In this document: piece after piece, positions 406-23,481 of the stretch
Numbering within the stretch: position 1 is the stretch's first letter
Layout of the letters: every line of letters begins with the position of its first letter
IMG/VR virus record: IMGVR_UViG_3300003323_001383
Strand: one strand, 5' to 3'
Length of the DNA stretch: 29,344 nt
Origin: a virus
Translations under genes and position numbers: made by a program
The notes under the pieces: model-generated
Told to the model about the DNA's origin: nothing
Seen by the model: the letters and a program-made list of their open reading frames with translations, nothing else
Database searches by the model: none

Positions 406-477
406 GGCCCGTTCTTCTAGCGGCTAGGAAGACGCCCTTTCAAGGCGTTAACGCGGGTTCGATTCCCGCACGGGTCA
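406..477 (+). tRNA. tRNA-Glu(UUC)
   Basis: Acceptor GGCCCGT/ACGGGTC (one G:U), anticodon stem ACGCC/GGCGT with loop CTTTCAA, T-arm GCGGG-TTCGATT-CCCGC; no encoded CCA. Confidence 0.85.
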
Positions 478-485
478 CAGCTTAC

Positions 486-557
486 GCCGGCTTAGCAATC
501 CAGGGAATGCACGCGCTTCGTAAGCGCGAGAGGCGGGTTCGAGTCCCGCAGCCGGCT
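486..557 (+). tRNA. tRNA-Thr(CGU)
   Basis: Acceptor GCCGGCT/AGCCGGC, anticodon stem CGCGC/GCGCG loop TTCGTAA, T-arm GCGGG-TTCGAGT-CCCGC. Confidence 0.85.
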
Positions 558-573
558 CTCTGTAATTTCGGAC

Positions 574-984
574 GTGGTCAAGTCGCTAGTGGACGAGACG
601 GAGAGGTTCCTGGACGTCATGGGGTCCTCCGGGGTGTTCGTCCTCGCCAGGATCCCCTGCCCCGACGGCGACCCCGTCGAGGTCAGGCTCATCCGGCGAA
701 AGGACGGGTCGGGGTTCGCCATGACGGTCAAGAGGGGCGAGGCGGGCCTCCTCTCGGACTACTGGCCCGCGTACGAGCACGGCTCCTGGTTCGTCAGCGA
801 CCTGACGGACAAGGACGGGAGGGTGACGACGATCCGGGGGCTCAGCCCCGAGCGTGTCGCCCAGTACGTCCACGAGGACGCGAAGAAGGCGGGGGTGGAG
901 GTCGACCGCCTAGCCCTCGCCGAGGCCATCTCCGACGAGATGATGCTCCGAATGTCGGCCGTCGCCGACGTCCTCCTGAGCTAG
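574..984 (+). CDS. hypothetical protein, 136 aa
   Basis: ORF with GC3 bias from GTG start; ends ..AVADVLLS; no domain recognised. Confidence 0.65.
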   Translation: MVKSLVDETERFLDVMGSSGVFVLARIPCPDGDPVEVRLIRRKDGSGFAMTVKRGEAGLLSDYWPAYEHGSWFVSDLTDKDGRVTTIRGLSPERVAQYVHEDAKKAGVEVDRLALAEAISDEMMLRMSAVADVLLS

Positions 985-1682
985 CACTGGTTCCAGCTCA
1001 TCCCGTGGAGGAACCCGTGCCACCCGTCGACCGCGATGGAGCCGGCGCCGGCCGCGCAGGTGTGGCCACCCTTCCCGACGTGCAGGGTCCCGTCCTCCGG
1101 GCTCCCGGAGATGACCCAGCACCGGTGGGTCTTCTCCTCCCTCATGGTGCAGTTGGACGCCCGTCCGCAGACGTCCCAGTCCACGCCGTTCGGGGTCACG
1201 CCGCGGAGGTGCCTCCCGTCGCAGTTGTCCCAGGCCCAGCAGTGGCCCGGCTCGTGCGAGTCTGACCAGTAGACGTCGCCGGGCTCCGGGCGCCCCGAGG
1301 GCGTGTCGAAGAGCTTCGACGAGGAGACCTGGCGGTTCACTATCTCCCCGGACTGGCCGACCTCCGAGGGGGTCGAGGAGGGAGGGACGGGCGCCCCGCA
1401 ATGGTCGCACTTCGTCGGCCATGCCTCTTCGGGGAAGTCGCCCTCCTCCCCGAAGGACTCCGGGACGGCCTCGGGGAACAGGTAGTCTCGGATGACGGCA
1501 GTGGCGTTGTGGCCGCCGGAGTGGCCCCGCCCGTAGGCGTTCGGGCAGGTGTTCTGGTAGTCGTACCTCGGGTGCCCCTCCGGGCACTGGTCGCACGGAG
1601 CGACGGAGCTGACGATGGCCCGGTCCCAGTAGACGCGGAGCTCGGAGCGCACGCCGACCCTTCGGATTAGCCTGGCCTTCAT
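981..1682 (-). CDS. Cys/His/Trp-rich hypothetical protein, about 233 aa
   Basis: ORF 981-1799 trimmed to first ATG (1682) because the upstream part overlaps the tRNA 5' half at 1721; many Cys/His (HCWAWDNC, HTCAAGAGS, WHGFLHG) suggest metal binding; start uncertain, no clear SD. Confidence 0.55.
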   Translation of the reverse strand: MKARLIRRVGVRSELRVYWDRAIVSSVAPCDQCPEGHPRYDYQNTCPNAYGRGHSGGHNATAVIRDYLFPEAVPESFGEEGDFPEEAWPTKCDHCGAPVPPSSTPSEVGQSGEIVNRQVSSSKLFDTPSGRPEPGDVYWSDSHEPGHCWAWDNCDGRHLRGVTPNGVDWDVCGRASNCTMREEKTHRCWVISGSPEDGTLHVGKGGHTCAAGAGSIAVDGWHGFLHGMSWNQC

Positions 1683-1720
1683 GCGGAGGCCGCCCGATAG
1701 GAGGTGTACTCTCCTCGAAT

Positions 1721-1956
1721 GACCCCGTAGCCTAGAGGAAAGGCACGGCCAAAAACGGAAGCCGCACTCGAAAGAGGGGCCGCTGGAGGGGGCGAGCACA
1801 AGACCGCACGGCGTCGCCGGGGCGGCCCTCTACTCGCCCTGACCTGGACCGAGGTTGCGGATGCACCGAATGGCACGGAGCTCCCGGGTCGCTAGGGAAG
1901 CGCGTTTCCTACATGGTCCTTTGCGGTCGACGCGGGTTCGAGTCCCGCCGGGGTCG
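1721..1956 (+). ncRNA. split tRNA-like gene: canonical 5' (acceptor + D-arm) and 3' (T-arm + acceptor) parts separated by about 180 nt
   Basis: 5' GACCCCG-TA-GCCT-AGAGGAA-AGGC (1721-1744); 3' GCGGG-TTCGAGT-CCCGC-CGGGGTC-G (1932-1956). Acceptor strands pair 7/7. No normal anticodon arm follows the D-arm. Confidence 0.5.
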
Positions 1957-1959
1957 CAG

Positions 1960-1994
1960 TCCCTCCATCGCGCGCTGGCCGCGCGGTGGAGGGA
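1960..1994 (+). terminator. 15-bp perfect stem-loop right after the split tRNA (terminator-like or processing hairpin, no U-tract)
   Basis: TCCCTCCATCGCGCG-ctggc-CGCGCGGTGGAGGGA; 14 Watson-Crick pairs + one G:U; followed by the only strongly AT-rich spacer of the array. Confidence 0.4.
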
Positions 1995-2083
1995 GTAGTA
2001 CTCGAAATAGGTCACGATCTCGTTGATCCTCACATAATTTTTAGTATCGGAAGTGCCCGAGTGGTCGGTCACATTTTTGTCAC

Positions 2084-2157
2084 GGCCAGGTAGCTCAGTT
2101 GGAAGAGCGGTGCACTGAAAATGCACGCGTCGCGGGTTCGACTCCCGCCCTGCGCCA
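2084..2157 (+). tRNA. tRNA-Phe(GAA) with irregular acceptor stem
   Basis: D-arm TAGCTCAGTTGGAAGAGC, anticodon stem GTGCA/TGCAC loop CTGAAAA, T-arm GCGGG-TTCGACT-CCCGC. Acceptor GGCCAGG pairs with CCTG(C)GCC only if one C is bulged; A73. Confidence 0.7.
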
Positions 2158-2927: not shown

Positions 2928-3497
2928 TTAGAGGACGAAGTCCTCCGCCAGGGCCTCCCGCAGGCGCGAGATGGTCCGGGCGTGTATCTGCGAGATGCGG
3001 GGCTCGGACACGCCGAGCTCGGCCGCTATGGAGCGATAGTCCACGCCGTGGACGTGGTGGGAGACGAAGATGTGGCGCTCGCGCCACGGGAGGAGGTCGA
3101 CGAGTTCCCAGACCTTCGACAGGGCGAGGGCCGCCGCGGTCCTTGCCTCGACGTCGTCGCCCGACATTGCGTCCTCGAGCGACCTGTGCCCGGAGTCGAC
3201 GAGGACGTGGACCGCCCTGTCCGGGTCGCCCTTGGCCCTCATGCGGTGGTGCCTCGGCATCCAGTCCTTCGTCCGCAGGTCGTCCTTTATGGCGCCGCGG
3301 ATCCTTATCCTCGCGTAGGCCCCGAAGTTCTCGCAGTCGGGGTGGAGGCGCGCCGCGTCCCAGAGGCCGGACATCGCGGCCGCGTGGAGGTCGTCGTACA
3401 TGATGTGCGCCGGAAGGCGCCGCTTGAACCCGAGCGCGATGCTGCGGGCGAGGTGTGCGTGGTCCTTCATGAGGATCGAGACGCGATACTCGTTCAC
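2928..3497 (-). CDS. sigma-70 family RNA polymerase sigma factor (FliA/group 3-4-like), 189 aa
   Basis: Region 2 motif YARIRIRGAIKDDLR and region 4.2 helix-turn-helix IAAELGVSEPRISQIHARTISRLRE; GTG start. Confidence 0.85.
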   Translation of the reverse strand: MNEYRVSILMKDHAHLARSIALGFKRRLPAHIMYDDLHAAAMSGLWDAARLHPDCENFGAYARIRIRGAIKDDLRTKDWMPRHHRMRAKGDPDRAVHVLVDSGHRSLEDAMSGDDVEARTAAALALSKVWELVDLLPWRERHIFVSHHVHGVDYRSIAAELGVSEPRISQIHARTISRLREALAEDFVL

Positions 3498-3587: not shown

Positions 3588-3659
3588 CGGGACGTAGCCT
3601 AGAGGCAAGGCGCATGTTTTGGGTACATGCTCACGCAGGTTCGACTCCTGTCGTCCCGA
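3588..3659 (+). tRNA. tRNA-Pro(UGG)
   Basis: C1:G72 acceptor CGGGACG/CGTCCCG, anticodon stem CATGT/ACATG loop TTTGGGT, T-arm GCAGG-TTCGACT-CCTGT. Confidence 0.85.
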
Positions 3660-3661
3660 CT

Positions 3662-3734
3662 GTGGCCGTAGCCAAGCGGTTAAGGCGGTCGGTTGTGGTC
3701 CGACTATTCGCGGGTTCGAATCCCGCCGGTCACC
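3662..3734 (+). tRNA. tRNA-His(GUG)
   Basis: Acceptor GTGGCCG/CGGTCAC, anticodon stem GTCGG/CCGAC loop TTGTGGT, T-arm GCGGG-TTCGAAT-CCCGC, C73; no G-1 encoded (T precedes). Confidence 0.85.
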
Positions 3735-3753
3735 CAGAGTGTAGTCTAGGTCG

Positions 3754-4705: not shown

Positions 4706-6730
4706 ATGAACAACGAGAGCATGGGGGCGGCCGAGACCATCGTCCAGTCCCTTCTGTCCCACGCGGACCACATGTACCACAACCGTCCCGGCGTCGTCGT
4801 CGCGGACGCCCGCTTCAAGGTCGGGGTCCGTTGGGAGTACGTGACGCACCGCGAGAAGTGCCGGACCCACGAGGACGACCCGGTGAGGCCGGAGAAGGAC
4901 GCCGAGGGCAAGAAGACCGGCCGCCTGCTCTGCTCCAAGTGCCAGTCTGACGTCCGGGGGAACGGCCACAGGATCGTCTACCGGAAGGTCAAGGTCGGCA
5001 AGAAGGAGGAGGAGCAGAAGGTGGGCTACCTCGGCCCCGACGGGAAGGACGTCCTCGGCCCGAACGGGCAGAAGGTCGCCGAGTACCGCGAGGCCGGCGT
5101 CTTCCCCGAGATCGCCGTCTGGATGTACGAGCAGGTCGCGAAGGTCTGGGAGCTCGACAACGAGTTCGCCGCCCGCTGGGCGTCGCACGCGTTCGGCGAG
5201 GACCACAAGGACCGGGCCGTGATCATGGCGGCCTTCATGCTCGTCCAGTCCCGCAAGGGGGACCCCGTCCGCGAGGACGGCAAGGTCCTGTTCCACGACG
5301 ACGACTTCCGGGACGTCGGCGAGGCCATGGTCCTGCACCTGAAGGACAAGAGGAAGAAGGACGAGCGCGAGATCTCCCCGCGCATGCTCCTGCGCATTCA
5401 CGAGGTCCTGTCGCTCGACGGGATCGCGGCGGTCAACCGGCGCCTCGGCTTCGGGGTCTCCGCCCGCAGGCCGCCCTTGGGCCGCTGGGCGAAGGCCGTC
5501 GAGAAGTGGCTCCTCTACCGGGAGGAGAACCCGAAGATGCTGGAGGGCCTGGTCAAGTCCGGGCAGAAGTCGACCGTCGTCGAGCTCTGCAAGCGCGTCG
5601 GGTACAAGCCCGCCTCGCCCAGGTTCTTCGAGATCCTCGGCGTCCGGCAGAAGCAGGCGCCGGACGGCAGGCGCACGGTCGCCATCGGCCTCGACATCAG
5701 GTCCGGCGGCTCGTGGGAGGGCATGAGCGAGGAGCAGATCTGCGAGGCGATCGTCAGGGACAAGGTCGGCTACAAGCGGGTGGCCGGCATGGTCCCCAGG
5801 TCCGTCGGCGTCACCCGCGCCGTCATGGCCGCGACGATCGAGGCCGGGGGCGTCTCCGACAAGGAGATGATCATCCTCATGCCGACCCTCGAGGAGCTCG
5901 GGCTCCTGGACGTCCCCTCCGTCAAGGAGAGGATCGAGCGCGCCGTCAAGGGCGCGGACGACATGCGCGCCGCGAACGTCGCGGCCCGGATGCGCTCCCA
6001 GGAGGCGAAGGAGAAGCTCCAGGAGGCCTCGGACAACGCCCTGAAGAAGGCGGTCGAGGAGGTCATGAAGGACATGCGCGCGTACATCCTAGTCGACAAG
6101 TCGGGCTCCATGGAGGGCGCGATCGAGGCGGCGAAGGGATGCGTGACGAAGTTCCTCCAGGGCTTTCCGCCCGAGCGGGTCCACGTGGCGTACTTCGACG
6201 CCGTCGGCCGCGAGGTCAGGATCCCGCACCCGTCCGCGGCCGGGGTCGCCAAGGCCTTCTCCGGCATCACGGCCGGAGGCGGGACCAACTACGGCCAGGG
6301 CGTCCTCGCCCTGAGGGACCACGTCCCGAAGGACGAGGAGGACGTCGTCATGATCTTCATCGGCGACGAGGGCCACGGGATCGGCCGGCTCATCAGGCTC
6401 GGCGAGGGCGACCACCCGTCGTTCGCCGCCGACGTCCAGAGGTCCGGCCTGCGGCCGATGGCGTTCGGGCTCATCCCGATCGTCTCGAAGAACCCGCAGT
6501 TCCCGCGCGGCAACTCCGTCCGGAAGACGGCCGCCGAGCTCGGGATCCCCTGCTTCGAGATCGGCGAGGAGACCTTCGCCGACCCCTACGCCATCCCGAG
6601 GACGATCAGGAACATCATCGCGGCGACCCCGGTCACCGCGAGGGCGACGGCCGCCCCGGTCCGGCGGCAGACCCTGGTCGAGGTCATCATGAAGACCGAG
6701 CTCCTCCGGAAGCCCGCTTGGGCAGCCTGA
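4706..6730 (+). CDS. von Willebrand factor A (vWA) domain protein with long helical N-terminal region, possibly TROVE/Ro60-like, 674 aa
   Basis: SD AAGGAG 8 nt upstream. MIDAS DxSxS in ILVDKSGSMEG, then ITAGGGTNYG and VVMIFIGDEGH (vWA). N-terminal GRWAKAVEKWL...KP and C-terminal FADPYAIPRTIRNI recall Ro60 by eye only. Confidence 0.8.
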   Translation: MNNESMGAAETIVQSLLSHADHMYHNRPGVVVADARFKVGVRWEYVTHREKCRTHEDDPVRPEKDAEGKKTGRLLCSKCQSDVRGNGHRIVYRKVKVGKKEEEQKVGYLGPDGKDVLGPNGQKVAEYREAGVFPEIAVWMYEQVAKVWELDNEFAARWASHAFGEDHKDRAVIMAAFMLVQSRKGDPVREDGKVLFHDDDFRDVGEAMVLHLKDKRKKDEREISPRMLLRIHEVLSLDGIAAVNRRLGFGVSARRPPLGRWAKAVEKWLLYREENPKMLEGLVKSGQKSTVVELCKRVGYKPASPRFFEILGVRQKQAPDGRRTVAIGLDIRSGGSWEGMSEEQICEAIVRDKVGYKRVAGMVPRSVGVTRAVMAATIEAGGVSDKEMIILMPTLEELGLLDVPSVKERIERAVKGADDMRAANVAARMRSQEAKEKLQEASDNALKKAVEEVMKDMRAYILVDKSGSMEGAIEAAKGCVTKFLQGFPPERVHVAYFDAVGREVRIPHPSAAGVAKAFSGITAGGGTNYGQGVLALRDHVPKDEEDVVMIFIGDEGHGIGRLIRLGEGDHPSFAADVQRSGLRPMAFGLIPIVSKNPQFPRGNSVRKTAAELGIPCFEIGEETFADPYAIPRTIRNIIAATPVTARATAAPVRRQTLVEVIMKTELLRKPAWAA

Positions 6731-6738
6731 GGCGCACG

Positions 6739-7095
6739 ATGTCGAGGAGGATGGGGCGGGAGCCCCTCCCCTCCCCGGTGTCGCACCGGTCCTACCTCGC
6801 CAGCCCGGCGTTCGGGCTGGCAAGGTCGGGCCGCAGCATCTTCTCGGTCCCGAAGAGGGGGCCGCTCTTCTACGCCGACTTCGAGGCGACGGAGCTCCGG
6901 ATGATGGCCTCCCTGGGCCTCTTCAGGTTCCCGTGCCCCGCCTGCGGAGACCCGCTCCTGGCGAGCGCCCGCTCCGGACGGAGGTCGATGGGGTACCCGC
7001 ACGACCTTGCCGGAAGCCAGGACGACATCCTCGTCCAGCACGCCCTGAAGAAGGGGGACCCCGAGCACGGCGTCCTCCTCGTCATGACGGCGTAG
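6739..7095 (+). CDS. hypothetical protein, 118 aa, C-terminus VLLVMTA
   Basis: GC3-biased frame starting at ATG 6739; contains FYADFEATELRMMA (resembles family-A polymerase motif A) and CPACG. Confidence 0.6.
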   Translation: MSRRMGREPLPSPVSHRSYLASPAFGLARSGRSIFSVPKRGPLFYADFEATELRMMASLGLFRFPCPACGDPLLASARSGRRSMGYPHDLAGSQDDILVQHALKKGDPEHGVLLVMTA

Positions 7096-7146
7096 GGTTC
7101 CCCGTGCTGCCCGGCTTTCGAATACGTGGCCCCGGCCCCTGACCTC

Positions 7147-7220
7147 CCGCCGGTAGCTCAGCGGTCACGAGCACGCGCCTTATAAGCGTGGGGTCGGTGG
7201 TTCAACTCCACCCCGGCGGA
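7147..7220 (+). tRNA. tRNA-Ile(UAU)
   Basis: Acceptor CCGCCGG/CCGGCGG, D-arm TAGCTCAGCGGTCACGAGC, anticodon stem CGCGC/GCGTG loop CTTATAA, T-arm GGTGG-TTCAACT-CCACC. Confidence 0.8.
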
Positions 7221-7264
7221 CGAAGCAGGCGGAGATGGCGCGCCCTCGGGCGTAACGTCGTCCC

Positions 7265-7338
7265 GGGCCCATCGTCTAAGTGGTTAAGGCCCCCGGCTCA
7301 TAACCGGGTAATTCTCGGTTCGAACCCGAGTGGGCCCA
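7265..7338 (+). tRNA. tRNA-Met(CAU), elongator-type (or Ile2 if lysidine-modified)
   Basis: Acceptor GGGCCCA/TGGGCCC (G1:C72), anticodon stem CCCGG/CCGGG loop CTCATAA, T-arm CTCGG-TTCGAAC-CCGAG. Confidence 0.8.
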
Positions 7339-7364
7339 CTCCCGGCGCGGCCGGGGAAGAAATC

Positions 7365-7658
7365 ATGACCAAAACAAAGCTAGTTCAGGCGCTCTCGGAA
7401 CAGAACGACATCACCCGGGCCCAGGCCAAGGGGATCCTCGACAGTCTCTACTCGATCGCGGAGAACGCGCTGAGGGAGGAGGGGTCGTTCACCCTCCCGG
7501 ACGTCGTGAAGCTGACCCTGAAGGACGTCCCGGCGCAGCCGGAGCGGCAGACGATCAACCCCTTTACCAAGCTTCCTCACACCTCGCCCCCGCGCCCGGC
7601 CTCGAAGAAGGTGAAGGCGTCGCCGGCGGCGACCATCAAGAAGGCGTTCCAGAAGTAG
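7365..7658 (+). CDS. HU/IHF family DNA-binding protein, 97 aa
   Basis: MTKTKLVQALSEQNDITRAQAKGILDSL...FTLPDVVKL...RQTINPFT matches the bacterial histone-like fold pattern; SD GGGGAAG upstream of ATG. Confidence 0.85.
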   Translation: MTKTKLVQALSEQNDITRAQAKGILDSLYSIAENALREEGSFTLPDVVKLTLKDVPAQPERQTINPFTKLPHTSPPRPASKKVKASPAATIKKAFQK

Positions 7659-7661
7659 GGC

Positions 7662-8648
7662 ATGTCCTGGCGGGACCTGCTCCAGAAGGAGGACGAGAGC
7701 CTCGTCCTCCCGTGGACCGGAGGGAGGACCGTCCTCTCGCCGGGCCCCGCGTACCAGATGCAGGGTCCGAAGCCCAGGGAGCACGGGTGGAAGGCTTTCC
7801 AGATAAAGGGAAGGAACGCCTTCCACGTCGGCCCGTCGGACCCGGAGGTCTCCGTCCTCGGAAGGCGCGTCACCGGGTACCTCGTCGGGGACCGCGTGGT
7901 CCCCGACGGGACACGGGTGGCCTCCGGCTACGATGGGATAATCTACTCCTCGGAGGCGGTCCACCTCCTCGAGCCCGGGATCGCCAGGTTCGCCAGGGTG
8001 TCCGCCGGCCGCGTCGCCGACGGGGCGCCCCTGGTCTTCGTCTCGGAGGAGATGCCGCTCGGGCCCGAGCAGGACGTCCTCGCCGCGTTCCAGGACCGGG
8101 CCCCGAACCTGGACGGGATCCGCGACGTCGAGCCAGCGCTCTACGCGGCCTTCGTCCTGGAGGTCGGCCAGAGGGCGTCGGCGGAGAAGGCCAGGGCCGA
8201 GCTCGAGGCGCAGCGCGCCCTGGAGGCCGCCCAGGCGGCCGAGAGGGAGCGGATCGGGAGGCTCGTGGAGCAGCTCTCGGACGCGCGCGGGAGGCGCGAG
8301 ATGGCGGCCTACGACTTCGCCCAGGCCGCGTCGGCGGCGCTGACCCTGGCGGAGGCTGAGTACCTGGACCACCGGGCGTCCGCCAACCGAGGGGAGATGG
8401 TCGTTACCTTCCGCCTCGAGGGGCGGAGGTTCGAGTGCGTGTGCGACGCCAGGACACTCCGGATCGTCGACTCGGGCATCTGCCTCGTCGACCACAGGAC
8501 CGGGGTCCGCGGCGACGACCGTTTCACCCTCGAGTCGCTCCCCGGCGTCATCCGCCTGGCGATGAGGACCGGCAGGCTTCACGTCTTCCGCCGGGTCGAC
8601 GACGACTACGGCGAGCGGGAGCACGATGACGACGACTACGACGACTAG
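7662..8648 (+). CDS. hypothetical protein, 328 aa, acidic C-terminal tail
   Basis: GC3-biased ORF starting 3 nt after the HU stop; central Ala/Glu/Arg coiled-coil-like segment; tail DDDYGEREHDDDDYDD. Confidence 0.7.
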   Translation: MSWRDLLQKEDESLVLPWTGGRTVLSPGPAYQMQGPKPREHGWKAFQIKGRNAFHVGPSDPEVSVLGRRVTGYLVGDRVVPDGTRVASGYDGIIYSSEAVHLLEPGIARFARVSAGRVADGAPLVFVSEEMPLGPEQDVLAAFQDRAPNLDGIRDVEPALYAAFVLEVGQRASAEKARAELEAQRALEAAQAAERERIGRLVEQLSDARGRREMAAYDFAQAASAALTLAEAEYLDHRASANRGEMVVTFRLEGRRFECVCDARTLRIVDSGICLVDHRTGVRGDDRFTLESLPGVIRLAMRTGRLHVFRRVDDDYGEREHDDDDYDD

Positions 8649-8649
8649 G

Positions 8650-9021
8650 ATGTCGAAGAAGACCTACAACGAGCGCCTGAGGGTCCTCATGGAGGTGACG
8701 GCCGCGAGGGCCGGGACGGCGGGTTTCAGCGTCGTGGTCCCGCACGCGAGCCCGAAGGAGGTCTGGCGGCTCGACGGGAAGGACATCCGGGACGTCAAGG
8801 CGAGCCTCTCCGGCATGGCCGAGCTCCAGTCCGACCAGGAGTGCGACGAGTGCCTCGAGCTCCTTCCGAGAGGGCACACGGTCGCCGGGAAGGTCATCCT
8901 CTGGGAGAGGGACGGGGGCATACTCCAGTCCCGGTTCCACTGCACCTGCATCCCCTGCTTCGTCCAGGACCGCGGGGGCTACCTGTCCTCAGCCGTCGTC
9001 GCGCTGGTCATGGAGACCTGA
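8650..9021 (+). CDS. hypothetical Cys-rich protein, about 123 aa, C-terminus VALVMET
   Basis: ORF frame open from 8626; ATG 8650 chosen (first ATG after upstream stop); CDEC...CTCIPC motifs. Confidence 0.6.
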   Translation: MSKKTYNERLRVLMEVTAARAGTAGFSVVVPHASPKEVWRLDGKDIRDVKASLSGMAELQSDQECDECLELLPRGHTVAGKVILWERDGGILQSRFHCTCIPCFVQDRGGYLSSAVVALVMET

Positions 9022-9045
9022 CGCGGGCCGGCGTAACGTCCCCGC

Positions 9046-9390
9046 ATGGACAACGACGAGTGCCCGTCGCGGACGACCTACAACGAGCCGATCCGGCACG
9101 TCGGCAGAGCCAGGACGGCGACGAAGCTGGCGATTCTGGCCATCGCGGCCGCGGCCGTCCTGCTCGTGGTCTTCGCGGAGCGACAGCCGAACCCGAGGAA
9201 GGAGCACGACAAGTACGTCTCCGAGCGGCCGGCCTGGAAGGGCCGGGAGTGGAGGGAGACCGAGGCCGTCCTCTTCGAGGACCCGGGCCACCCCCTCACC
9301 TATCACGTCTGCACCTTCCGGGGGTGCGGGCACTACTTCGAGGACAAGACGGGGACCGACATGGCTCCGGGAAACGGGCAGAAGGAATGA
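9046..9390 (+). CDS. single-pass membrane protein, 114 aa
   Basis: Hydrophobic helix KLAILAIAAAAVLLVVFA; stop overlaps next start (ATGA). Confidence 0.65.
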   Translation: MDNDECPSRTTYNEPIRHVGRARTATKLAILAIAAAAVLLVVFAERQPNPRKEHDKYVSERPAWKGREWRETEAVLFEDPGHPLTYHVCTFRGCGHYFEDKTGTDMAPGNGQKE

Positions 9391-9791
9391 GCATCGAGGA
9401 CGCGGCGGTCGTCGGCAAGGACGGGACCGTGGTCTACTGGCACTCCCCGGAGAACAGGTCGTACGGGTTCATCCCCGACTCCAGGAAGCTCTGGGACGTC
9501 ATATGGGAGGGGAGGGCCTCCATCGACGGGATCGCCCACACTCACCCGGGCAGGGGCTACCCGAACCCGTCGAAGACGGACCTGACGACCTTCGAGGCCG
9601 TCGAGAAGGGCATCGGGCGCCGCATCAAGTGGTGGATACTGAGCGCGGACTCCTCGGTCCTCCTCGAGTGGAGCGACGAGTTCTCCGGAGGGTACGACGT
9701 CACCAGCTACATGACCGTGGAGCGAGAGCCGGGGTGGATGGCGGCCCTCAGGGCCCGCTCTTTCCCGGAGCTCCAGGCCGCGCCCGCGTAG
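9387..9791 (+). CDS. JAB/MPN (JAMM) family metallopeptidase, 134 aa
   Basis: GIAHTHPGRGYPNPSKTD fits the JAMM H-x-H-x(7-8)-S-x-x-D zinc motif; ATGA overlap with upstream gene. Confidence 0.7.
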   Translation: MSIEDAAVVGKDGTVVYWHSPENRSYGFIPDSRKLWDVIWEGRASIDGIAHTHPGRGYPNPSKTDLTTFEAVEKGIGRRIKWWILSADSSVLLEWSDEFSGGYDVTSYMTVEREPGWMAALRARSFPELQAAPA

Positions 9792-9799
9792 CGCGGCCC

Positions 9800-10522
9800 A
9801 TGTCGCTGGACTGCATCATATCCGTCACCCCGAAGGCCCGAGGGAGGGCCAGGAAGACCGTGAACGGGCCGGTCTCCCGCTTCATCCGGGACGACGAGGA
9901 CTACTACCAGGCCGTCCTCAAGCACCTCAAGGAGTGCAGGGTGTGCGACCCCGCGGAGGCCCTCCGGGGGTTCCTGAAGAACCGGCGGGCCGAGAAGTTC
10001 GGTGGCAGGGTCTCGGGCCTCCTCCTCAACATGGCGGCCAAGTACGTCAAGAACTTCCGCCACCGCGGCGAGGAGATCGACGCCCTCTACAGGGAATACC
10101 TCGTCGGGCATTTCTCCAGCTTCCACGACCTCGAGGAGGCCAGGGGTCTGACGGTCGAGGAGGTGCGCCGGGCCCACTCGATGTACATGACCCGGCACGA
10201 GCGGGAGGTCCGCCTCGCCCTCGAGTCGGAGGCCGGCCCGAAGGAGAAGAAAAAGCGCGCGGAGCCGCACCCGTTCGACGAGGCGCAGAGCCGCATGGGG
10301 TGGAAGGACGAGGTCTGGCCGAGGGAGGCCCTCGGCCGCATCGTCCCGGTCGATCTCCAGTTTTACGCCTCCCTCTCCGAGGAGGAGGCGGAGGACCTCG
10401 GCCCCTACCCCCTCGCCGTCTGGCTCGTCACCCGCCACAGCTGGGAGACGGCCATCCGGGAGGAGTCGGTCATCGCGGAGTACGCGAGGCTCCAGCTCGC
10501 GCAGAACGTCATGGACTCGTGA
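9800..10522 (+). CDS. hypothetical protein, 240 aa, C-terminus AQNVMDS
   Basis: GC3-biased frame from ATG 9800; sits between the JAB and small Gly-terminated protein genes; no E2 signature recognised. Confidence 0.65.
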   Translation: MSLDCIISVTPKARGRARKTVNGPVSRFIRDDEDYYQAVLKHLKECRVCDPAEALRGFLKNRRAEKFGGRVSGLLLNMAAKYVKNFRHRGEEIDALYREYLVGHFSSFHDLEEARGLTVEEVRRAHSMYMTRHEREVRLALESEAGPKEKKKRAEPHPFDEAQSRMGWKDEVWPREALGRIVPVDLQFYASLSEEEAEDLGPYPLAVWLVTRHSWETAIREESVIAEYARLQLAQNVMDS

Positions 10523-10559
10523 GGGTCCGAGTGTAGCGATAGTGGAAGGAGACACGAAA

Positions 10560-13162: not shown

Positions 13163-13186
13163 CGGAAGAGCGTAAGGTCGTCCGGC

Positions 13187-13600: not shown

Positions 13601-13671
13601 GCCCTCGTAGCTCAGTGGCAGAGCACGTCCTTGGTAAGGACAAGACACGGGTCCGATTCCCGTCGAGGGCT
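13601..13671 (+). tRNA. tRNA-Thr(GGU)
   Basis: Acceptor GCCCTCG/CGAGGGC, loop TTGGTAA, T-arm ACGGG-TCCGATT-CCCGT (C55), followed by T-CCA. Confidence 0.8.
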
Positions 13672-13677
13672 CCAGTC

Positions 13678-13748
13678 GCGGGACTGGTATAGAGGCTGTG
13701 CCTCGGCTTTCCAAGCCGAAGAGACCGGTTCGAGTCCGGTGTCCCGCT
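13678..13748 (+). tRNA. tRNA-Gly(UCC)
   Basis: Acceptor GCGGGAC/GTCCCGC, anticodon stem TCGGC/GCCGA loop TTTCCAA, T-arm ACCGG-TTCGAGT-CCGGT. Confidence 0.85.
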
Positions 13749-13749
13749 C

Positions 13750-14064
13750 CTAGAGGCCCGCGCGCCTCCGCATCCGGCCCTCCCACTCTCGGCCGAGGCG
13801 CTGCCCGCGCTCCGAGACGGCCTTCCTCTCCCTCGGGTCGGCCACGTCCTTGCTCTTGCCGCGGCTCGAGATGCGCTCCACGGCGGTTATCCGGCCGCAC
13901 GCGACGTGGACGTGGAAGACCTCCGCGTCCTTGTTGAAGCCGTGCTCGTCGAGCTTCCGCGTCGCCGCGGAGACGTCCTTCCTGCTCTGGAACAGGACGC
14001 TCCCGCTGAGGAGGGAGGTGGAGCAGACGACGCGCCATCGGCCGATGTTCATCGGGGTTGCCAT
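13750..14064 (-). CDS. hypothetical protein, 104 aa
   Basis: ATG-initiated ORF with clear GC3 bias on the minus strand; basic C-terminus; no domain recognised. Confidence 0.6.
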   Translation of the reverse strand: MATPMNIGRWRVVCSTSLLSGSVLFQSRKDVSAATRKLDEHGFNKDAEVFHVHVACGRITAVERISSRGKSKDVADPRERKAVSERGQRLGREWEGRMRRRAGL

Positions 14065-14131: not shown

Positions 14132-14539
14132 ATGGCGAAGGTCCTGATAGTGGACGACTCCGCCCTGGTCCGGGTCCTGATGGCGGACTGGCTGCGGAGG
14201 GAGGGGCACGAGGCGGTCTCCATCGACTCGCCCGCGCTTCTGGGATCGACGATGATGAGGGAGCGCCCCGACATCGTCGTCATGGACGTCGACCTCGGAG
14301 GGGTCCGGGGAGACAGGATGACGGCCGTGGCCCGCGAGAGCGGGCTCATCGACTGTCCGGTGGTCCTCGCCTCGGCGAGGCGCGACTCGGACCTCGCGAT
14401 GCTCTGCGTCGAGTGCGGGGCCATCGGGTACGTGCAGAAGGGCGAGGACGGTCCCGCCTTCGTGCGCGCTCTCGAGTCGTACATGACGCGCCGTTCGCTC
14501 CTCCCGGCGTCGAGGAGGAGAGTGTCTTCGCGGGCGTAG
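14132..14539 (+). CDS. stand-alone response-regulator receiver (CheY-like REC) protein, 135 aa
   Basis: KVLIVDDSALVR...DIVVMDVDLGGVRG...VVLASA... fits the REC fold acidic pocket and phospho-acceptor Asp; TAG stop lies inside tRNA-Gly(GCC). Confidence 0.8.
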   Translation: MAKVLIVDDSALVRVLMADWLRREGHEAVSIDSPALLGSTMMRERPDIVVMDVDLGGVRGDRMTAVARESGLIDCPVVLASARRDSDLAMLCVECGAIGYVQKGEDGPAFVRALESYMTRRSLLPASRRRVSSRA

Positions 14540-14601
14540 CCTAGTGGCTCAGGTGCTGCGTTGCCAACGCAGATACGCGGGTTCGATTCCCGCCGCCCGC
14601 A
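14530..14601 (+). tRNA. tRNA-Gly(GCC)
   Basis: Acceptor GCGGGCG/CGCCCGC, anticodon stem CTGCG/CGCAG loop TTGCCAA, T-arm GCGGG-TTCGATT-CCCGC. Confidence 0.85.
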
Positions 14602-14617
14602 CCGGTAGCGTGCAGTC

Positions 14618-15725: not shown

Positions 15726-15797
<72 letters not shown>

Positions 15798-15804
15798 CCG
15801 TAAC

Positions 15805-15876
15805 GGCGACGTGGTCGAATGGCTCAGGCTCCGGACTGCAAATCCGGCCACGCGGGTTCGATTCCCGCCGTCGCCT
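15805..15876 (+). tRNA. tRNA-Cys(GCA)
   Basis: Acceptor GGCGACG/CGTCGCC, anticodon stem CCGGA/TCCGG loop CTGCAAA, T-arm GCGGG-TTCGATT-CCCGC, T73. Confidence 0.85.
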
Positions 15877-15878
15877 CG

Positions 15879-16949: not shown

Positions 16950-17025
16950 GCCCCCGTAGCCTAGCGGATCCAGGCGCTCGTTTTCTAAACGAGGTCACAC
17001 GCTGGTTCGAGTCCAGCCGGGGGCA
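16950..17025 (+). tRNA. tRNA-Arg(UCU)
   Basis: Acceptor GCCCCCG/CGGGGGC, anticodon stem CTCGT/ACGAG loop TTTCTAA, T-arm GCTGG-TTCGAGT-CCAGC, A73 followed by CCA. Confidence 0.85.
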
Positions 17026-17029
17026 CCAC

Positions 17030-17102
17030 GTCCCGTTCTTCTAGAGGCCCAGGAATCTGCCCTCTCAAGGCGGCAACGCGGGTTCGAATCCCGCACGGGA
17101 CG
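17030..17102 (+). tRNA. tRNA-Glu(CUC)
   Basis: Acceptor GTCCCGT/ACGGGAC, anticodon stem CTGCC/GGCGG loop CTCTCAA, T-arm GCGGG-TTCGAAT-CCCGC. Confidence 0.85.
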
Positions 17103-17108
17103 CCCCTT

Positions 17109-17182
17109 ACCGGGGGAGCCAGCTAGGCGACGGCGCCTCTCTTACAAGGAGGAGATGGCGGGTTCGAACCCCGCACCCGGTA
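17109..17182 (+). tRNA. tRNA-Val(UAC)
   Basis: Anticodon stem CCTCT/GGAGG loop CTTACAA, T-arm GCGGG-TTCGAAC-CCCGC, acceptor ACCGGGG/ACCCGGT (G:A at 7:66); 5' end could be 1 nt upstream. Confidence 0.7.
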
Positions 17183-17187
17183 CTCAC

Positions 17188-17259
17188 GTCCCCGTAGTCT
17201 AATGGACAGGCACATCGCTACGAACGATGTATATGCAGGTTCGAGTCCTGCCGGGGACG
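17188..17259 (+). tRNA. tRNA-Arg(ACG)
   Basis: Acceptor GTCCCCG/CGGGGAC, anticodon stem CATCG/CGATG loop CTACGAA, variable TATAT, T-arm GCAGG-TTCGAGT-CCTGC. Confidence 0.85.
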
Positions 17260-17275
17260 CTGTAACGTCAGACGG

Positions 17276-17512
17276 ATGACGAGAGAGGAAAGGGTCCGCG
17301 TCCTGCTCGGGGACGGCGGCTCCCGCTGCAACAAGATGCACCTGGCGGCCGGCTGGGGCTTCGAATGGAGATGGGAGGGAGAAGGGCCGGAGAAGAACGG
17401 GACGATGCGAAGCCGCATGCTGTTCCTCATCGACGGGGAGTGGAGGAGGGCCAAGAGCTGGGACGAGGACGTCCGGCCGCTCCTCAAGGACTTCAAGGCT
17501 CCCGTAGCCTAG
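17276..17512 (+). CDS. hypothetical protein, 78 aa
   Basis: ATG-initiated, Trp/Glu/Arg-rich; last 4 codons and the TAG stop lie within tRNA-Arg(CCG). Confidence 0.5.
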   Translation: MTREERVRVLLGDGGSRCNKMHLAAGWGFEWRWEGEGPEKNGTMRSRMLFLIDGEWRRAKSWDEDVRPLLKDFKAPVA

Positions 17513-17569
17513 AGGATCAGGCACCGCCCTCCGAAGGCGGCTAGGCAGGTTCGAGTCCTGCCGGGAGCG
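17498..17569 (+). tRNA. tRNA-Arg(CCG)
   Basis: Acceptor GCTCCCG/CGGGAGC, D-arm GCCT-AGAGGATC-AGGC, anticodon stem CCGCC/GGCGG loop CTCCGAA, T-arm GCAGG-TTCGAGT-CCTGC. Confidence 0.85.
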
Positions 17570-17583
17570 CGTAGGATCGCAGG

Positions 17584-18834: not shown

Positions 18835-19020
18835 ATGACGGGGGCGATCAAGGTCCTCGCGATGACGTGCGAGGACTGCGCCCGGTTCACGGGGCCCGAG
18901 TACACGCCGGTCACGGTCCTCGTGGAGGAGATCGGGGAGGGCGAGCTCGCCGTGCTCGAGGTCATGGAGATTGAGACGGTGCGAGGCTGGACGCCGGGGG
19001 CGCAGCCTCGCACCCGATAG
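18835..19020 (+). CDS. hypothetical small protein, at least 61 aa
   Basis: Frame open upstream to 18484 and includes a CxxxxC pair (LCGTKGC) before the first ATG, so a non-ATG start (GTG 18820 or CTG 18781 overlapping the upstream stop) is possible. The TAG stop is the first 3 nt of tRNA-Gln. Confidence 0.35.
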   Translation: MTGAIKVLAMTCEDCARFTGPEYTPVTVLVEEIGEGELAVLEVMEIETVRGWTPGAQPRTR

Positions 19021-19088
19021 GGAGTCGTCTAAAGGCAGGACATCGAGCTTTGGACTCGCGAATGGGGGTTCGAGTCCCTCCTCCCTAA
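19018..19088 (+). tRNA. tRNA-Gln(UUG)
   Basis: U1:A72 acceptor TAGGGAG/CTCCCTA, loop CTTTGGA, T-arm GGGGG-TTCGAGT-CCCTC. Confidence 0.8.
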
Positions 19089-19089
19089 C

Positions 19090-21376: not shown

Positions 21377-21460
21377 GCCGCCGTGGCAGGAACGGTAGAC
21401 GCGGATGGCTTAAAACCTTCTGCCCTCGCGGGCGTGCCGGTTCGACTCCGGCCGGCGGCA
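21377..21460 (+). tRNA. tRNA-Leu(UAA)
   Basis: Acceptor GCCGCCG/CGGCGGC, anticodon stem GATGG/CCTTC (one U:U) loop CTTAAAA, long variable arm, T-arm GCCGG-TTCGACT-CCGGC. Confidence 0.8.
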
Positions 21461-21477
21461 CCGACGCTCGCTCTCTC

Positions 21478-21559
21478 GCCGTCGTGGTGGAACTGGCAGT
21501 CACAGCGCACTCAAAACGCGCCGCCTCAGGGCGTGCGGGTTCGACTCCCGCCGACGGCA
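21478..21559 (+). tRNA. tRNA-Leu(CAA)
   Basis: Acceptor GCCGTCG/CGACGGC, anticodon stem GCGCA/CGCGC (A:C next to loop) loop CTCAAAA, long variable arm, T-arm GCGGG-TTCGACT-CCCGC. Confidence 0.8.
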
Positions 21560-21840
21560 CGAAACCTGGCCTTCCGGAACTCCTCGACCTTCTGCTTGTT
21601 CCGCCACCCCCGGACCTTCTTCCGCGAAACGCGGAGCTCGGACGGGTCGTAGGCGTAGCGCAGGAGGCTGGGGATCCAGTAGACGTCGACCTCCGGGCCG
21701 TAGACGCCGTTCCCGAAGTAGGCCGGCCCGACCACGATCCCGGAGCAACCTCCGAACTCGGCGACGTGCTCCCGGGACCCGTTGGCGCGGAAGGCCTTCC
21801 GGAGGGAGGCGGACATGCGGACGACGGTCCCGGGGGTCAT
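21526..21840 (-). CDS. hypothetical protein, 104 aa
   Basis: ATG overlaps upstream stop (ATGA); GC3-biased; last ~11 codons run antisense through tRNA-Leu(CAA). Confidence 0.6.
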   Translation of the reverse strand: MTPGTVVRMSASLRKAFRANGSREHVAEFGGCSGIVVGPAYFGNGVYGPEVDVYWIPSLLRYAYDPSELRVSRKKVRGWRNKQKVEEFRKARFRAVGGSRTRTP

Positions 21841-22073
21841 TCCGGGTCGAACTCGAGATAGGAGTAGACCGCCACGGCCCCGTCGTCGTGCTTGACGAAG
21901 TACAGGTCGCCCCCGGCGCCGCCGACCGCATCGAGGACCTGGCCGGAGGCCCCGTTCTTCCGGGCGGCGACGAGGTCGGCCCCGCCGATCATGCCCATCG
22001 TGGCGTTCTTCTCGAAGCAGTCCACGGTCCGCACGCGGACGCCCCTCTTCAAGATTTGGCTCGGCTGCTCCAT
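21837..22073 (-). CDS. hypothetical protein, 78 aa
   Basis: ATG-initiated, GC3-biased, first gene of a minus-strand run 22073 to 19090. Confidence 0.6.
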   Translation of the reverse strand: MEQPSQILKRGVRVRTVDCFEKNATMGMIGGADLVAARKNGASGQVLDAVGGAGGDLYFVKHDDGAVAVYSYLEFDPE

Positions 22074-22149
22074 GCCGAGGAATACAACGACGTTAGCCCG
22101 ACTTTCGCGGAGGGAAAGTCAAGACAGTAACATAGACAGGCAGGAACCG

Positions 22150-22668
22150 ATGAGAACCCTTCTTCTGACCCCGTGGCTCTTCCCGCACAAGGTCCTCTCC
22201 TGGGAGGACGCCGTGACCCTCGTCTACCGGGGGAAGGTCGACGTCCTGGTCGAGTACGGCCAGGAGGTCTCCTCCCCGTCCGTGACGTGGAAGGTCCCGG
22301 CGGTGCTGCGCCTGCGCAAGCCCATCGGGCACATGCGGAGGGGCGTGAAGTTCTCCCGACTGAACGTCTTCACCCGGGACAAGTTCCGGTGCCAGTACTG
22401 CGGGGAGAAGTTCTGCTTCGACGACCTGACCTACGACCACGTCATCCCGGCCCGCCTCGGCGGCGAGAAGGACTGGGAGAACATCGTGACGGCCTGCAGC
22501 CCCTGCAACAACAGGAAGGGCGGCAGGACCTGCGACCAGGCCAGGATGTGGCCGCTGAACTGGCCGAAGAAGCCAGAGTCCGTCCCGGCGACCGGCCCCC
22601 TGATCAAGAGGGACGGTATCCCCGAGGAGTGGCAGGGCTTCTGCGACGGCCTCATACACATCACGTGA
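22150..22668 (+). CDS. HNH endonuclease, 172 aa
   Basis: CQYCGEKF...LTYDHVIPARLGGEKDWENIVTACSPCNNRKG = canonical HNH/McrA-type motif. Confidence 0.85.
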   Translation: MRTLLLTPWLFPHKVLSWEDAVTLVYRGKVDVLVEYGQEVSSPSVTWKVPAVLRLRKPIGHMRRGVKFSRLNVFTRDKFRCQYCGEKFCFDDLTYDHVIPARLGGEKDWENIVTACSPCNNRKGGRTCDQARMWPLNWPKKPESVPATGPLIKRDGIPEEWQGFCDGLIHIT

Positions 22669-22689
22669 AACGAGTGTACCCTGAGGGAC

Positions 22690-23214
22690 ATGGGCGCAAC
22701 CGGCTATAACCCCCTTCAACAGATGGTCCCGTCCGGGCCGTCGGGTCCCTTCGGGATCCCTGTCGTCATGAAGGCATTCCCGGAGGAAGGACACGCCGTC
22801 CTGGAGGAGCTCGTCCTGACGGACAGGCTGAAGGTCCTCCTGAAGGCCCGGGCGAGATACCAGGCCGTGGGCTCCCTTCAGTTCATGCCGAGCGCCTCCG
22901 CCGTCCTCGTGGAGAGGAGGGAGGACGGGACGACGAGCGAGAGGGAGATCGCCAGCATGACCATGCCGGAGATCCTGGGCCTTCCCTCCACGTCGCTGAT
23001 GTGGCAGAACATCGTCCTCTACCTGGAGACGGCCCACAAGCTCTCGGTGAAGGAAGACAAAGGCAAGATACGGGACGCCTGCGCGGCGGCCGGGAAGGCG
23101 GCGATGAAGTTCACGGCCACCCTCATGGCGGACGTCGCGATGGGCGTCCTGAACGACGAGGATATGGCCGAGGCCAAGGACTCGGCAGTAGTGTTGCAGG
23201 TCATGGAGACCTGA
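22690..23214 (+). CDS. hypothetical protein, 174 aa, C-terminus VLQVMET
   Basis: ATG-initiated GC3-biased ORF; stop 6 nt before tRNA-Ser(GGA). Confidence 0.65.
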   Translation: MGATGYNPLQQMVPSGPSGPFGIPVVMKAFPEEGHAVLEELVLTDRLKVLLKARARYQAVGSLQFMPSASAVLVERREDGTTSEREIASMTMPEILGLPSTSLMWQNIVLYLETAHKLSVKEDKGKIRDACAAAGKAAMKFTATLMADVAMGVLNDEDMAEAKDSAVVLQVMET

Positions 23215-23220
23215 GAGAAC

Positions 23221-23302
23221 GGAGCGTCCTGCTGAAGGCTGGCAACGGGACTGGAAATCCCGGGGGACCGAAAGGTCGGTGGTTCGATTCCACGGCGCTC
23301 CG
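23221..23302 (+). tRNA. tRNA-Ser(GGA)
   Basis: Acceptor GGAGCGT/GCGCTCC, anticodon stem CGGGA/TCCCG loop CTGGAAA, long variable arm, T-loop TTCGATT. Confidence 0.8.
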
Positions 23303-23308
23303 CGAAGG

Positions 23309-23391
23309 GGAGACACAACCCGATAGGCGACGGGACCGGTTTTGAAAACCGGCGAGCTACGGCCTTGGGAGTTCGACTCTCCCTGTCTCCG
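23309..23391 (+). tRNA. tRNA-Ser(UGA)
   Basis: Acceptor GGAGACA/TGTCTCC, anticodon stem CCGGT/ACCGG loop TTTGAAA, long variable arm, T-arm GGGAG-TTCGACT-CTCCC. Confidence 0.85.
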
Positions 23392-23398
23392 CGTGTAC

Positions 23399-23481
23399 GG
23401 AAGGACCTGCCGAATGGCCGGCAACGGGACTCGAAATCCCGGGGCACCGAAAGGTGGGAGGTTCGATCCCTCGTCCTTCCG
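23399..23481 (+). tRNA. tRNA-Ser(CGA)
   Basis: Acceptor GGAAGGA/TCCTTCC, anticodon stem CGGGA/TCCCG loop CTCGAAA, long variable arm, T-loop TTCGATC. Confidence 0.8.

Follow-up and report, generated by a model that had tools for sequence, protein, structure and literature searches.

Why should a virus carry tens of transfer RNA (tRNA) genes, with several decoders for the same amino acid? This question is raised by a stretch of 29,344 nucleotides from the IMG/VR virus record IMGVR_UViG_3300003323_001383, here called the window. Its + strand carries 33 tRNA genes, which serve 15 amino acids, between positions 406 and 23482. We read the window as the tRNA-island part of an uncultivated huge (jumbo-class) tailed phage of the Rctr197k lineage, in which a decoder pool of its own would free phage translation from host tRNAs, and we put the probability of this reading at roughly 80%.

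The tRNA gene set

The tRNA genes of the window were detected with ARAGORN and scored with the Rfam covariance model RF00005, for which the gathering score is 29 bits. ARAGORN made 34 calls. The 33 calls on the + strand included every one of the 32 anticodons that the original prediction had obtained by hand-folding, together with a tRNA-Ala(CGC) at 2526-2595. In the whole-window Rfam scan 26 of the 33 genes reached the gathering score, with a range of 29.3 to 67.5 bits. The genes for tRNA-Ile(GAU), tRNA-Val(GAC) and tRNA-Thr(UGU) were missed in that scan because the speed filters dropped them, and they scored above the gathering score when short stretches were searched with the filters relaxed, which brought the number to 29 of 33. 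The four genes below it were tRNA-Ala(CGC) and the three tRNA-Ser genes. For the latter, which had class II arms and G73, the top Rfam model was that of tRNA-Sec, a clan-mate of the tRNA model, at 38-43 bits and under its cut-off of 47. Thus the predicted set of at least 32 canonical genes was borne out by both programs, covariance scoring did not reject most of the hand-called genes, and all 33 accepted genes were co-oriented amid small coding sequences, as had been proposed.

Isoacceptors were found for most of these amino acids (coordinates on the + strand and Rfam scores in bits are given in brackets; all genes were called by ARAGORN). For proline there were tRNAs with the anticodons GGG (2450-2522; 29.3, a borderline score), CGG (2604-2678; 62.7) and UGG (3588-3660; 58.2), for glycine UCC (13678-13750; 50.7), GCC (14530-14603; 67.5) and CCC (15726-15799; 66.8), and for threonine CGU (486-558; 53.1), UGU (13091-13163; 38.5) and GGU (13601-13674; 64.7). 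The three serine tRNAs GGA (23221-23303), UGA (23309-23392) and CGA (23399-23482) scored 39.3, 43.4 and 38.3 bits with the tRNA-Sec model. The Pro, Gly, Thr and Ser (UCN) boxes therefore each have decoders with G34, C34 and U34, in agreement with the claim that whole four-codon boxes are served. Arginine had CCU (12497-12572; 54.1), UCU (16950-17028; 57.0), ACG (17188-17260; 56.5) and CCG (17498-17570; 58.9), and leucine had the class II tRNAs GAG (2197-2280; 53.6), CAG (2285-2369; 48.6), UAA (21377-21462; 41.8) and CAA (21478-21560; 46.6). Two tRNAs each were found for glutamate, UUC (406-478; 59.0) and CUC (17029-17105; 50.6), for valine, GAC (2685-2758; 39.5) and UAC (17109-17183; 40.6), for isoleucine, GAU (2375-2451 including its CCA; 40.8 at 2375-2448) and UAU (7147-7221; 61.2), and for alanine, GGC (12576-12649; 49.1) and CGC. 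The remaining genes were those for tRNA-Phe(GAA) (2084-2156; 51.2), tRNA-His(GUG) (3662-3735; 60.8), tRNA-Met(CAU) (7265-7339; 55.8), tRNA-Cys(GCA) (15805-15877; 58.8) and tRNA-Gln(UUG) (19018-19089; 54.5). The ARAGORN boundaries of tRNA-Ile(GAU), 2379-2451, were off by 4 nt; the true gene occupies 2375-2448, followed by an encoded CCA that runs into the start of tRNA-Pro(GGG).

The density of tRNA genes was 1.43 per kb (33 genes in 23,077 bp). The original prediction called this exceptional, which holds against ordinary phages but not against huge phages, since Rctr197k has at least 41 tRNAs and huge phages have up to 67. The genes formed 14 clusters, or the 13 small clusters first described if 16950-17570 is counted as a single one. 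A CCA end was encoded in only three of the 33 genes (Ile-GAU, Thr-GGU and Arg-UCU), so the statement that most genes lack it was correct. The only call on the minus strand, an 86-nt tRNA-Gly(UCC) at 6959-7044, was probably a false positive, with mismatches in the acceptor and anticodon stems and no Rfam support. When thresholds were relaxed or introns permitted, ARAGORN returned 89-94 calls, which were mostly noise and served as a pointer only. No tmRNA was found in the window by ARAGORN at default settings, and the tmRNA calls made at low thresholds were dismissed as noise.

Several of the tRNAs were unusual in structure. tRNA-Ala(CGC) was only 70 nt long, with G3:U70, a minimal D arm and C33, and was 97% identical to the copy in L002, one of the two closest relatives of the locus. 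It resembles the tRNA-like domain of tmRNA; the Rfam tmRNA model (RF00023, gathering score 47) gave 31 and 22.6 bits in alignments that skip its entire middle part, and a weak match to the Tymo tRNA-like family was seen as well. tRNA-His(GUG) had C73, and the genome has T, not G, at position -1 (3661). In most bacterial tRNA-His genes G-1 is genome-encoded, and therefore charging of this tRNA may require an unusual histidyl-tRNA synthetase or post-transcriptional addition of G-1. AUA is read in most bacteria by a lysidine-modified CAU tRNA; here a tRNA-Ile(UAU) was found, with same-anticodon copies in the relatives L002, L003 and L008. In tRNA-Met(CAU) the G1-C72 pair was formed, which argues for an elongator-like or Ile2-like rather than an initiator-like tRNA.

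Features of this kind could mean that a sizeable part of the set consists of decaying pseudogenes, or of decoys for nucleases that target tRNAs, and not of decoders. The non-canonical Ala-CGC and Pro-GGG, an odd tRNA whose anticodon drifts, two T-arm remnants (1881-1957 and 2759-2822) and the absence of an encoded CCA from most genes point in that direction. We nevertheless regard this explanation as highly doubtful, for 29 of the 33 genes reach the Rfam gathering score, stems are intact, identity features are present (for example G73 of Ser, A73 of Leu and G3:U70 of Ala), and order and sequence are conserved across diverged relatives.

Viral relatives, inheritance and proposed role

The window has a G+C content of about 67%, and G+C at third codon positions (GC3) exceeds 0.9 in likely genes. 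Most of the approximately 40 open reading frames (ORFs) tested had no match in Pfam or PHROG. The recognisable proteins were a sigma-70 factor, an HU-like protein, a vWA-domain protein, a ThiF/E1-like protein, a dual-specificity phosphatase, an HNH endonuclease, an Hsp20, a NUDIX protein and a CxxCxxCC protein. The 674-amino-acid vWA protein (4706-6730, + strand; Pfam VWA_2) matched a protein of Virus Rctr197k (KX853510.1, Caudoviricetes, 197 kb) along its entire length with 50% identity. In the Rctr197k record a single strand bears more than 40 annotated tRNAs, which adjoin homologues of the vWA, ThiF-like, HNH and phosphatase genes; elsewhere the record has head-morphogenesis and terminase-like features. 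This virus was described as having 'no less than 41 tRNAs' (Gambelli et al. 2016, PMC5099504), and its capsid and terminase proteins have been placed near those of jumbo phage PaBG (PMC7412058).

More than 1600 homologues of the 674-amino-acid protein were found, many of them on contigs of 100-620 kb. A search for the protein in viral and genome collections gave pattern matches only, none of which was confirmed, and no relative was found in a scan of 185,579 species-representative genomes. Nine related loci were examined, and the syntenic metagenomic contigs of 63-620 kb among them include L002, L003, L005 and L007-L010. The relatives share the order sigma factor (minus strand), vWA protein, a protein of about 330 amino acids, small proteins and ThiF-like protein, followed by a non-coding gap, and the related loci carry 18-33 tRNAs per 13-22 kb. 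In tblastn searches the ORFs of the window gave collinear matches of 40-80% identity to L001-L005. At the nucleotide level, megablast of 25 kb of the window against 50,697 phage records gave no match.

Several points weigh against reading the window as part of a huge phage with a working decoder pool. No capsid, terminase or tail gene was found in its 29 kb, and because of this the viral assignment rests on homology and synteny. Nor did the window contain a gene for a CCA-adding enzyme, an aminoacyl-tRNA synthetase or a tRNA repair enzyme. Finally, some of the tRNA genes are structurally marginal, namely Pro-GGG at 29.3 bits, the atypical Ala-CGC and the His gene without encoded G-1. The lack of a hallmark phage gene would also suit a piece of a cellular chromosome, or of a megaplasmid that is not viral, in which tRNA operons are unusually numerous, as would the fact that the contigs of some relatives were binned in metagenome-assembled genomes named as bacteria, e.g. 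'Methylobacter sp.'. However, the Rfam scan of the window found no rRNA or other cellular RNA family, no gene for EF-Tu or a ribosomal protein was present among its ORFs, and ORFs without a family match dominate. Among the relatives are a GenBank Caudoviricetes record and IMG/VR viral contigs; an RNA motif of the window locus, described below as the E RNA, recurs on such contigs of 70-529 kb, and the 674-amino-acid protein had no relative in the species-representative genomes. A cellular or megaplasmid origin is hardly credible on this evidence, and the synteny with phage relatives bears out the view that the locus is a phage element rather than a cellular tRNA operon. By homology and gene order, then, the window appears to be viral.

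As had been reported, no tRNA for Asn, Asp, Lys, Trp or Tyr was found in the window. The order of tRNA genes in L002, whose vWA protein is 80% identical, was that of the window: Glu-UUC and Thr-CGU; Phe, Leu-GAG, Leu-CAG, Ile-GAU, Pro-GGG, Ala-CGC, one differing slot and Val-GAC; Pro-UGG and His; Ile-UAU and Met; Arg-CCU and Ala-GGC; Thr-UGU, Thr-GGU and Gly-UCC; Gly-GCC; and Gly-CCC and Cys. Upstream of Glu-UUC, which corresponds to position 406 of the window, L002 carries Tyr, Lys-UUU, Lys-CUU, Gln-CUG, Asp, Asn, Met, Trp and Met. The same upstream block was found in L007, and L008 has Tyr, two Lys, Gln-CUG and Asn upstream, with Trp further in. Since the relatives carry these tRNAs just upstream of the equivalent of the window start, their absence is most probably an effect of the window edge.

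The differing slot is at 2604-2678, where the window has Pro-CGG and both L002 (7483-7569) and L003 (8519-8605) have Leu-CAA. A Pro-CGG with 87% identity to the one in the window was found on L009, a distant contig of 620 kb. The difference in this slot suggests replacement of a tRNA gene within the array.

The original prediction held that isoacceptors for one amino acid sit together and took this as a sign of local duplication followed by anticodon divergence. The first part was confirmed by permutation, with eight adjacent pairs for the same amino acid against 1.7 expected (P about 2e-4). Recent tandem duplication in situ with mutation of the anticodon would account for such neighbours, and likewise for Ser-GGA and Ser-CGA, which are 82% identical. 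The sequences, however, do not bear it out as a recent process. Identity among isoacceptors, i.e. paralogues, was 58-82% with a mean of 69% (59% for unrelated pairs), a range judged unremarkable for isoacceptors, and the most similar pairs were often not adjacent. For example, Glu-UUC and Glu-CUC are 81% identical and lie 16.6 kb apart, and Leu-CAG is closer to Leu-CAA (79%) than to its neighbour Leu-GAG (73%). Between the window and its two closest relatives, L002 and L003, tRNAs with the same anticodon were 61-100% identical (the L002 copy of Gly-CCC being the identical one) and stood in the same order; for 22 of the 33 genes the top match across phages had the same anticodon. Orthologues were thus more alike than paralogues, and anticodons and order were shared with relatives whose proteins are only 50-80% identical. 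From these comparisons the isoacceptor sets appear to be older than the divergence of these phages, i.e. old and inherited, and recent duplication as their source is improbable. Any duplication would be ancient, with capture of whole sets as the other possible source.

Codon usage was determined from 28 ORFs of the window (5,643 codons, GC3 above 0.9). AGG made up 34% of Arg codons, AUA 14% of Ile codons, CUC 61% of Leu codons (CUG 29%) and GGG 37% of Gly codons, and the phage has the matching tRNAs Arg-CCU, Ile-UAU, Leu-GAG and Gly-CCC. The use of AGG and GGG and the preference for CUC over CUG seem unusual for a genome with GC3 above 0.9. Pure codon compensation, in which tRNAs are carried only for codons common in the phage and rare in its host, would predict this, as AGG, AUA, CUC and GGG all exceed the expectation at such a GC3 and each has its cognate phage tRNA. 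Against it, UUA and UUG together accounted for six of 460 Leu codons, yet two tRNAs, Leu-UAA and Leu-CAA, are kept for them; U34 decoders are retained for NNA codons with a share of 2-8% in their families; and near-complete sets are conserved across the relatives. Because of the two tRNAs kept for those six codons in particular, the codon pattern is in better accord with replacement of the host tRNA pool as a whole than with codon compensation alone, which we consider unlikely. The tRNAs of the window can read 82% of the sense codons in the 28 ORFs.

The co-orientation of the tRNAs with the flanking + strand ORFs, their conservation and the paucity of encoded CCA were observed directly. On the reading of a replacement pool, the tRNAs would be transcribed together with the flanking short phage genes of the + strand, and host RNase P and 3' processing enzymes would release them from the precursors. 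Most of the tRNAs would then receive CCA from a CCA-adding enzyme and be charged by host synthetases or by phage synthetases encoded outside the view of the window. With Tyr, Lys, Asp, Asn, Trp, Gln-CUG and an extra Met, which lie upstream in the relatives, the phage would probably own a nearly complete decoder set. Its likeliest role would be to free phage translation from the host pool, firstly by supplying decoders matched to the phage codon preferences (AGG, AUA, CUC and GGG) and secondly by replacing host tRNAs that are depleted or cleaved in infection, for instance during host shut-off or by tRNA-targeting defence nucleases. Phage tRNAs are reported to counter anticodon nucleases and retron or PARIS effectors (PMC10264068, PMC11555353).

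The HNH endonuclease gene (21892-22668, + strand; Pfam HNH) lies inside the island, between the Leu and Ser tRNA clusters, and its homologues lie beside Leu and Ser tRNAs in L005 and beside Leu tRNAs in Rctr197k. As a possible homing element, it may contribute to the shuffling of tRNA genes. The sigma-70 family factor (2928-3497, minus strand) was identified by Pfam Sigma70_r2/r4 and as a PHROG sigma factor, and in the relatives it is found upstream of the gene for the 674-amino-acid protein.

Oversized tRNA-shaped RNAs and the Ro60-like module

A scan for canonical T arms outside the called tRNAs found five on the + strand and none on the minus strand. Three of the five lay within the 680-nt non-coding stretch after the ThiF-like gene and belonged to tRNA-shaped RNAs that we named E1 (131 nt, 11553-11683), E2 (135 nt, 11718-11852, followed by CCA) and E3 (129 nt, 11992-12120), all on the + strand. 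In each unit the 7-bp acceptor stem is perfect or nearly so, and a D-like hairpin is followed by a 5-bp arm whose anticodon-like loop has 7 nt. A conserved, covarying domain of two helices and about 55 nt takes the place of the variable loop, and there are also a conserved UCUCACAAGC-type motif and a canonical T arm. The anticodon-like loops are CG-GUA-AA in E1, CU-UCC-AC in E2 and UU-UUG-GA in E3.

A covariance model, R1, was built from 22 copies of this family. It detected 24 copies in the window and six relatives at 82-116 bits (E1 109, E2 95.5 and E3 96.8 bits), whereas ordinary tRNAs gave at most 34 bits. In the alignment 92.7% of cells were paired, against 62.5% in shuffles and at most 61% in slid controls, and compensatory changes were seen in 23 of the 25 base pairs. 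Members of the family are 119-144 nt long. On IMG/VR contigs of 78-529 kb there were one to six copies each, in tandem, and across the lineage they almost always directly followed the module that runs from the Ro60-like gene, discussed below, to the ThiF/E1-like gene. The loops were mostly of the form C32-U33-NNN-A37; the triplets include GUA (seven copies, always with G or C at 33), UCC (six), UUG (four) and GAA (three).

A scan of the 185,579 genomes with the E-RNA motif gave ten pattern matches, and strong copies were present only on the contig binned as 'Methylobacter'. The matches in Colwellia, Binatia and Chlorobiaceae were dropped, as the model had no match there at E up to 1e-8. No Rfam family was found for the E RNAs, the only signal being a weak tRNA-Sec match of E3 at 23.3 bits. 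The idea that the insertions are introns was also dropped, since no intron or ribozyme family of Rfam matched. A literature search found no published description of this class, and the E RNAs look undescribed.

Between E2 and E3 lies the extra tRNA that Rfam found (11881-11952, + strand, 50.4 bits) and ARAGORN did not call at default settings. It has the anticodon ACU, a mismatch at 1:72 (C.A or A.A across the copies) and a T loop of 8-9 nt; CCA is encoded in the window and in most copies. The body of this odd tRNA is conserved at the same genomic position in seven genomes including the window, the other copies being at 17657-17727 in L002, 17839-17908 in L003, 17281-17352 in L005, about 18140-18215 in L008, 16357-16430 in L009 and 15067-15140 in L010. 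The anticodons of the seven genomes are, in turn, ACU, AAU, CAU, UAA, AGA, UAA and UGU. ARAGORN missed the gene in L002 and L003 as it did in the window and named it Leu or Thr in L005, L009 and L010.

The other two T arms belong to tRNA-like fragments on the + strand. E0 (2759-2822), found by the T-arm scan directly after tRNA-Val(GAC), is a tRNA-like 3' half consisting of a hairpin, a UCACACAAGC motif, a T arm and a 7-nt 3' strand, and it is conserved in L002, L003, L005 and L007. No 5' partner of E0 was found. Its 3' strand CGTCCCC could pair with GGGGACG, the complementary 5' end of tRNA-Ala(CGC) about 290 nt upstream, and this is a candidate pairing only. The element at 1881-1957, upstream of tRNA-Phe, is below threshold; it has a canonical T arm at 1932-1948, was called by ARAGORN at relaxed thresholds only and is conserved in L002 at 2741.

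The E RNAs follow a module at 4706-11466 that is conserved in phage contigs of 63-620 kb. It begins with the 674-amino-acid vWA protein, continues with the protein of about 330 amino acids and the small proteins, and ends with the ThiF/E1-like adenylyltransferase (10894-11466, + strand; Pfam ThiF, 2.6e-23) immediately upstream of the E RNAs. The 674-amino-acid protein, which anchors the synteny with the relatives, consists of an N-terminal beta domain, a helical region and the vWA domain. Its AlphaFold model had a predicted local distance difference test (pLDDT) score of 80.6 and a predicted template modelling (pTM) score of 0.51. The top Foldseek matches of this model were TROVE/Ro60 structures (9kop, 1yvr, 1yvp and the phage structure 9l5y), with E values of 9e-9 to 1e-6 over 537-614 columns and template modelling (TM) scores of only 0.19-0.35, and a phage TROVE protein was among its fold matches in BFVD. 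The protein thus looks Ro60/TROVE-like by predicted fold. At the sequence level the TROVE domain (Pfam PF05731) was absent from the window protein and from 32 family members at E values up to 10, and a profile search of the PDB returned vWA proteins only. The ThiF-like protein had E1-E2 matches in PADLOC and only generic ThiF/MoeB matches in NCBIfam; PADLOC found nothing else among the window proteins. A faint JAB-like match was noticed in the version of the module carried by the relatives.

Ro60 proteins of bacteria (Rsr) and of phages have as partners tRNA-like Y RNAs (YrlA) whose genes lie close by (Chen et al. 2014, PMC4201824), a phage Ro60 has been described (PMC12135203) and TROVE proteins have been noted in some jumbo phages (PMC7824862). 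In 11470-12146 the YrlA model (RF02553) gave at best 13.7 bits against a gathering score of 69. The ends of the E RNAs pair as the 7-bp acceptor stem, and no conserved GNCGAA motif was seen by eye. We tentatively suggest that the E RNAs could be phage counterparts of Y RNAs, or specialised or decoy tRNAs, that act together with the Ro60-like module to survey, protect or reprogramme the pool of tRNAs in the course of infection; this is possible rather than probable.

Comparison with known systems

tRNA islands are already known in huge phages and one relative of this locus, Rctr197k, has been published, while the odd oversized tRNA-like RNAs look undescribed. The window and Rctr197k have homologous flanks, with the vWA proteins 50% and the ThiF-like proteins 48% identical and the HNH and tyrosine-phosphatase-like genes shared. 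In both, the tRNAs lie on one strand (41-45 in about 17 kb in Rctr197k), many anticodons are the same and isoacceptors are grouped. On the other hand, megablast showed no similarity at the nucleotide level, the order is largely rearranged, and Rctr197k has two tight arrays instead of 14 small clusters. Its G+C content is 63% compared with about 67% here, and it contains no strong copy of the E RNA (best 22 bits).

Huge phages carry up to 67 tRNAs that differ from the tRNAs of the host, which has been interpreted as a means of redirecting translation (Al-Shayeb et al. 2020, PMC7162821). The present locus resembles them in having tens of tRNAs and in the occurrence of its relatives on contigs of 340-620 kb, but the window has no gene for an aminoacyl-tRNA synthetase, an initiation factor or a ribosomal protein. 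It adds one more lineage to the known picture of huge phages with near-complete decoder sets. Because order and anticodons are shared at 50-80% protein identity, such sets can be old and vertically inherited, and the conservation among the relatives makes it possible that they are inherited in this way rather than captured repeatedly. The tRNA clusters of cultured phages (PMC10264068, PMC11555353) likewise consist of co-oriented tRNAs with small ORFs and homing-type HNH genes, and replacement of cleaved host tRNAs has been proposed for them. In contrast to these, the set of the window is far larger (33 or more) and serves whole four-codon boxes with G34, C34 and U34. Codon data such as the two Leu tRNAs for about 1% of Leu codons help to separate replacement of the pool from codon compensation.

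The more valuable lead is the companion locus, with its Ro60-like protein, E1-like enzyme, covarying oversized tRNA-shaped RNAs and tRNA of shifting anticodon. If these parts act together, they would open a tractable way to study the monitoring or manipulation of tRNAs by large phages. Compared with the Ro60/YrlA system, the window protein has no sequence-detectable TROVE domain and carries an extra N-terminal beta domain, and the E RNAs come after the ThiF-like gene, about 5 kb from the Ro60-like gene. Unlike YrlA, the E RNAs end in an acceptor stem instead of a Ro-binding stem, keep an anticodon-like arm and have an added domain in place of the variable arm. What the two systems have in common is a protein with a helical region and a vWA domain, for which the predicted fold here is nearest to TROVE/Ro60, and structured RNAs encoded nearby with a tRNA-like T arm, a D-like arm and a 7-bp acceptor stem.

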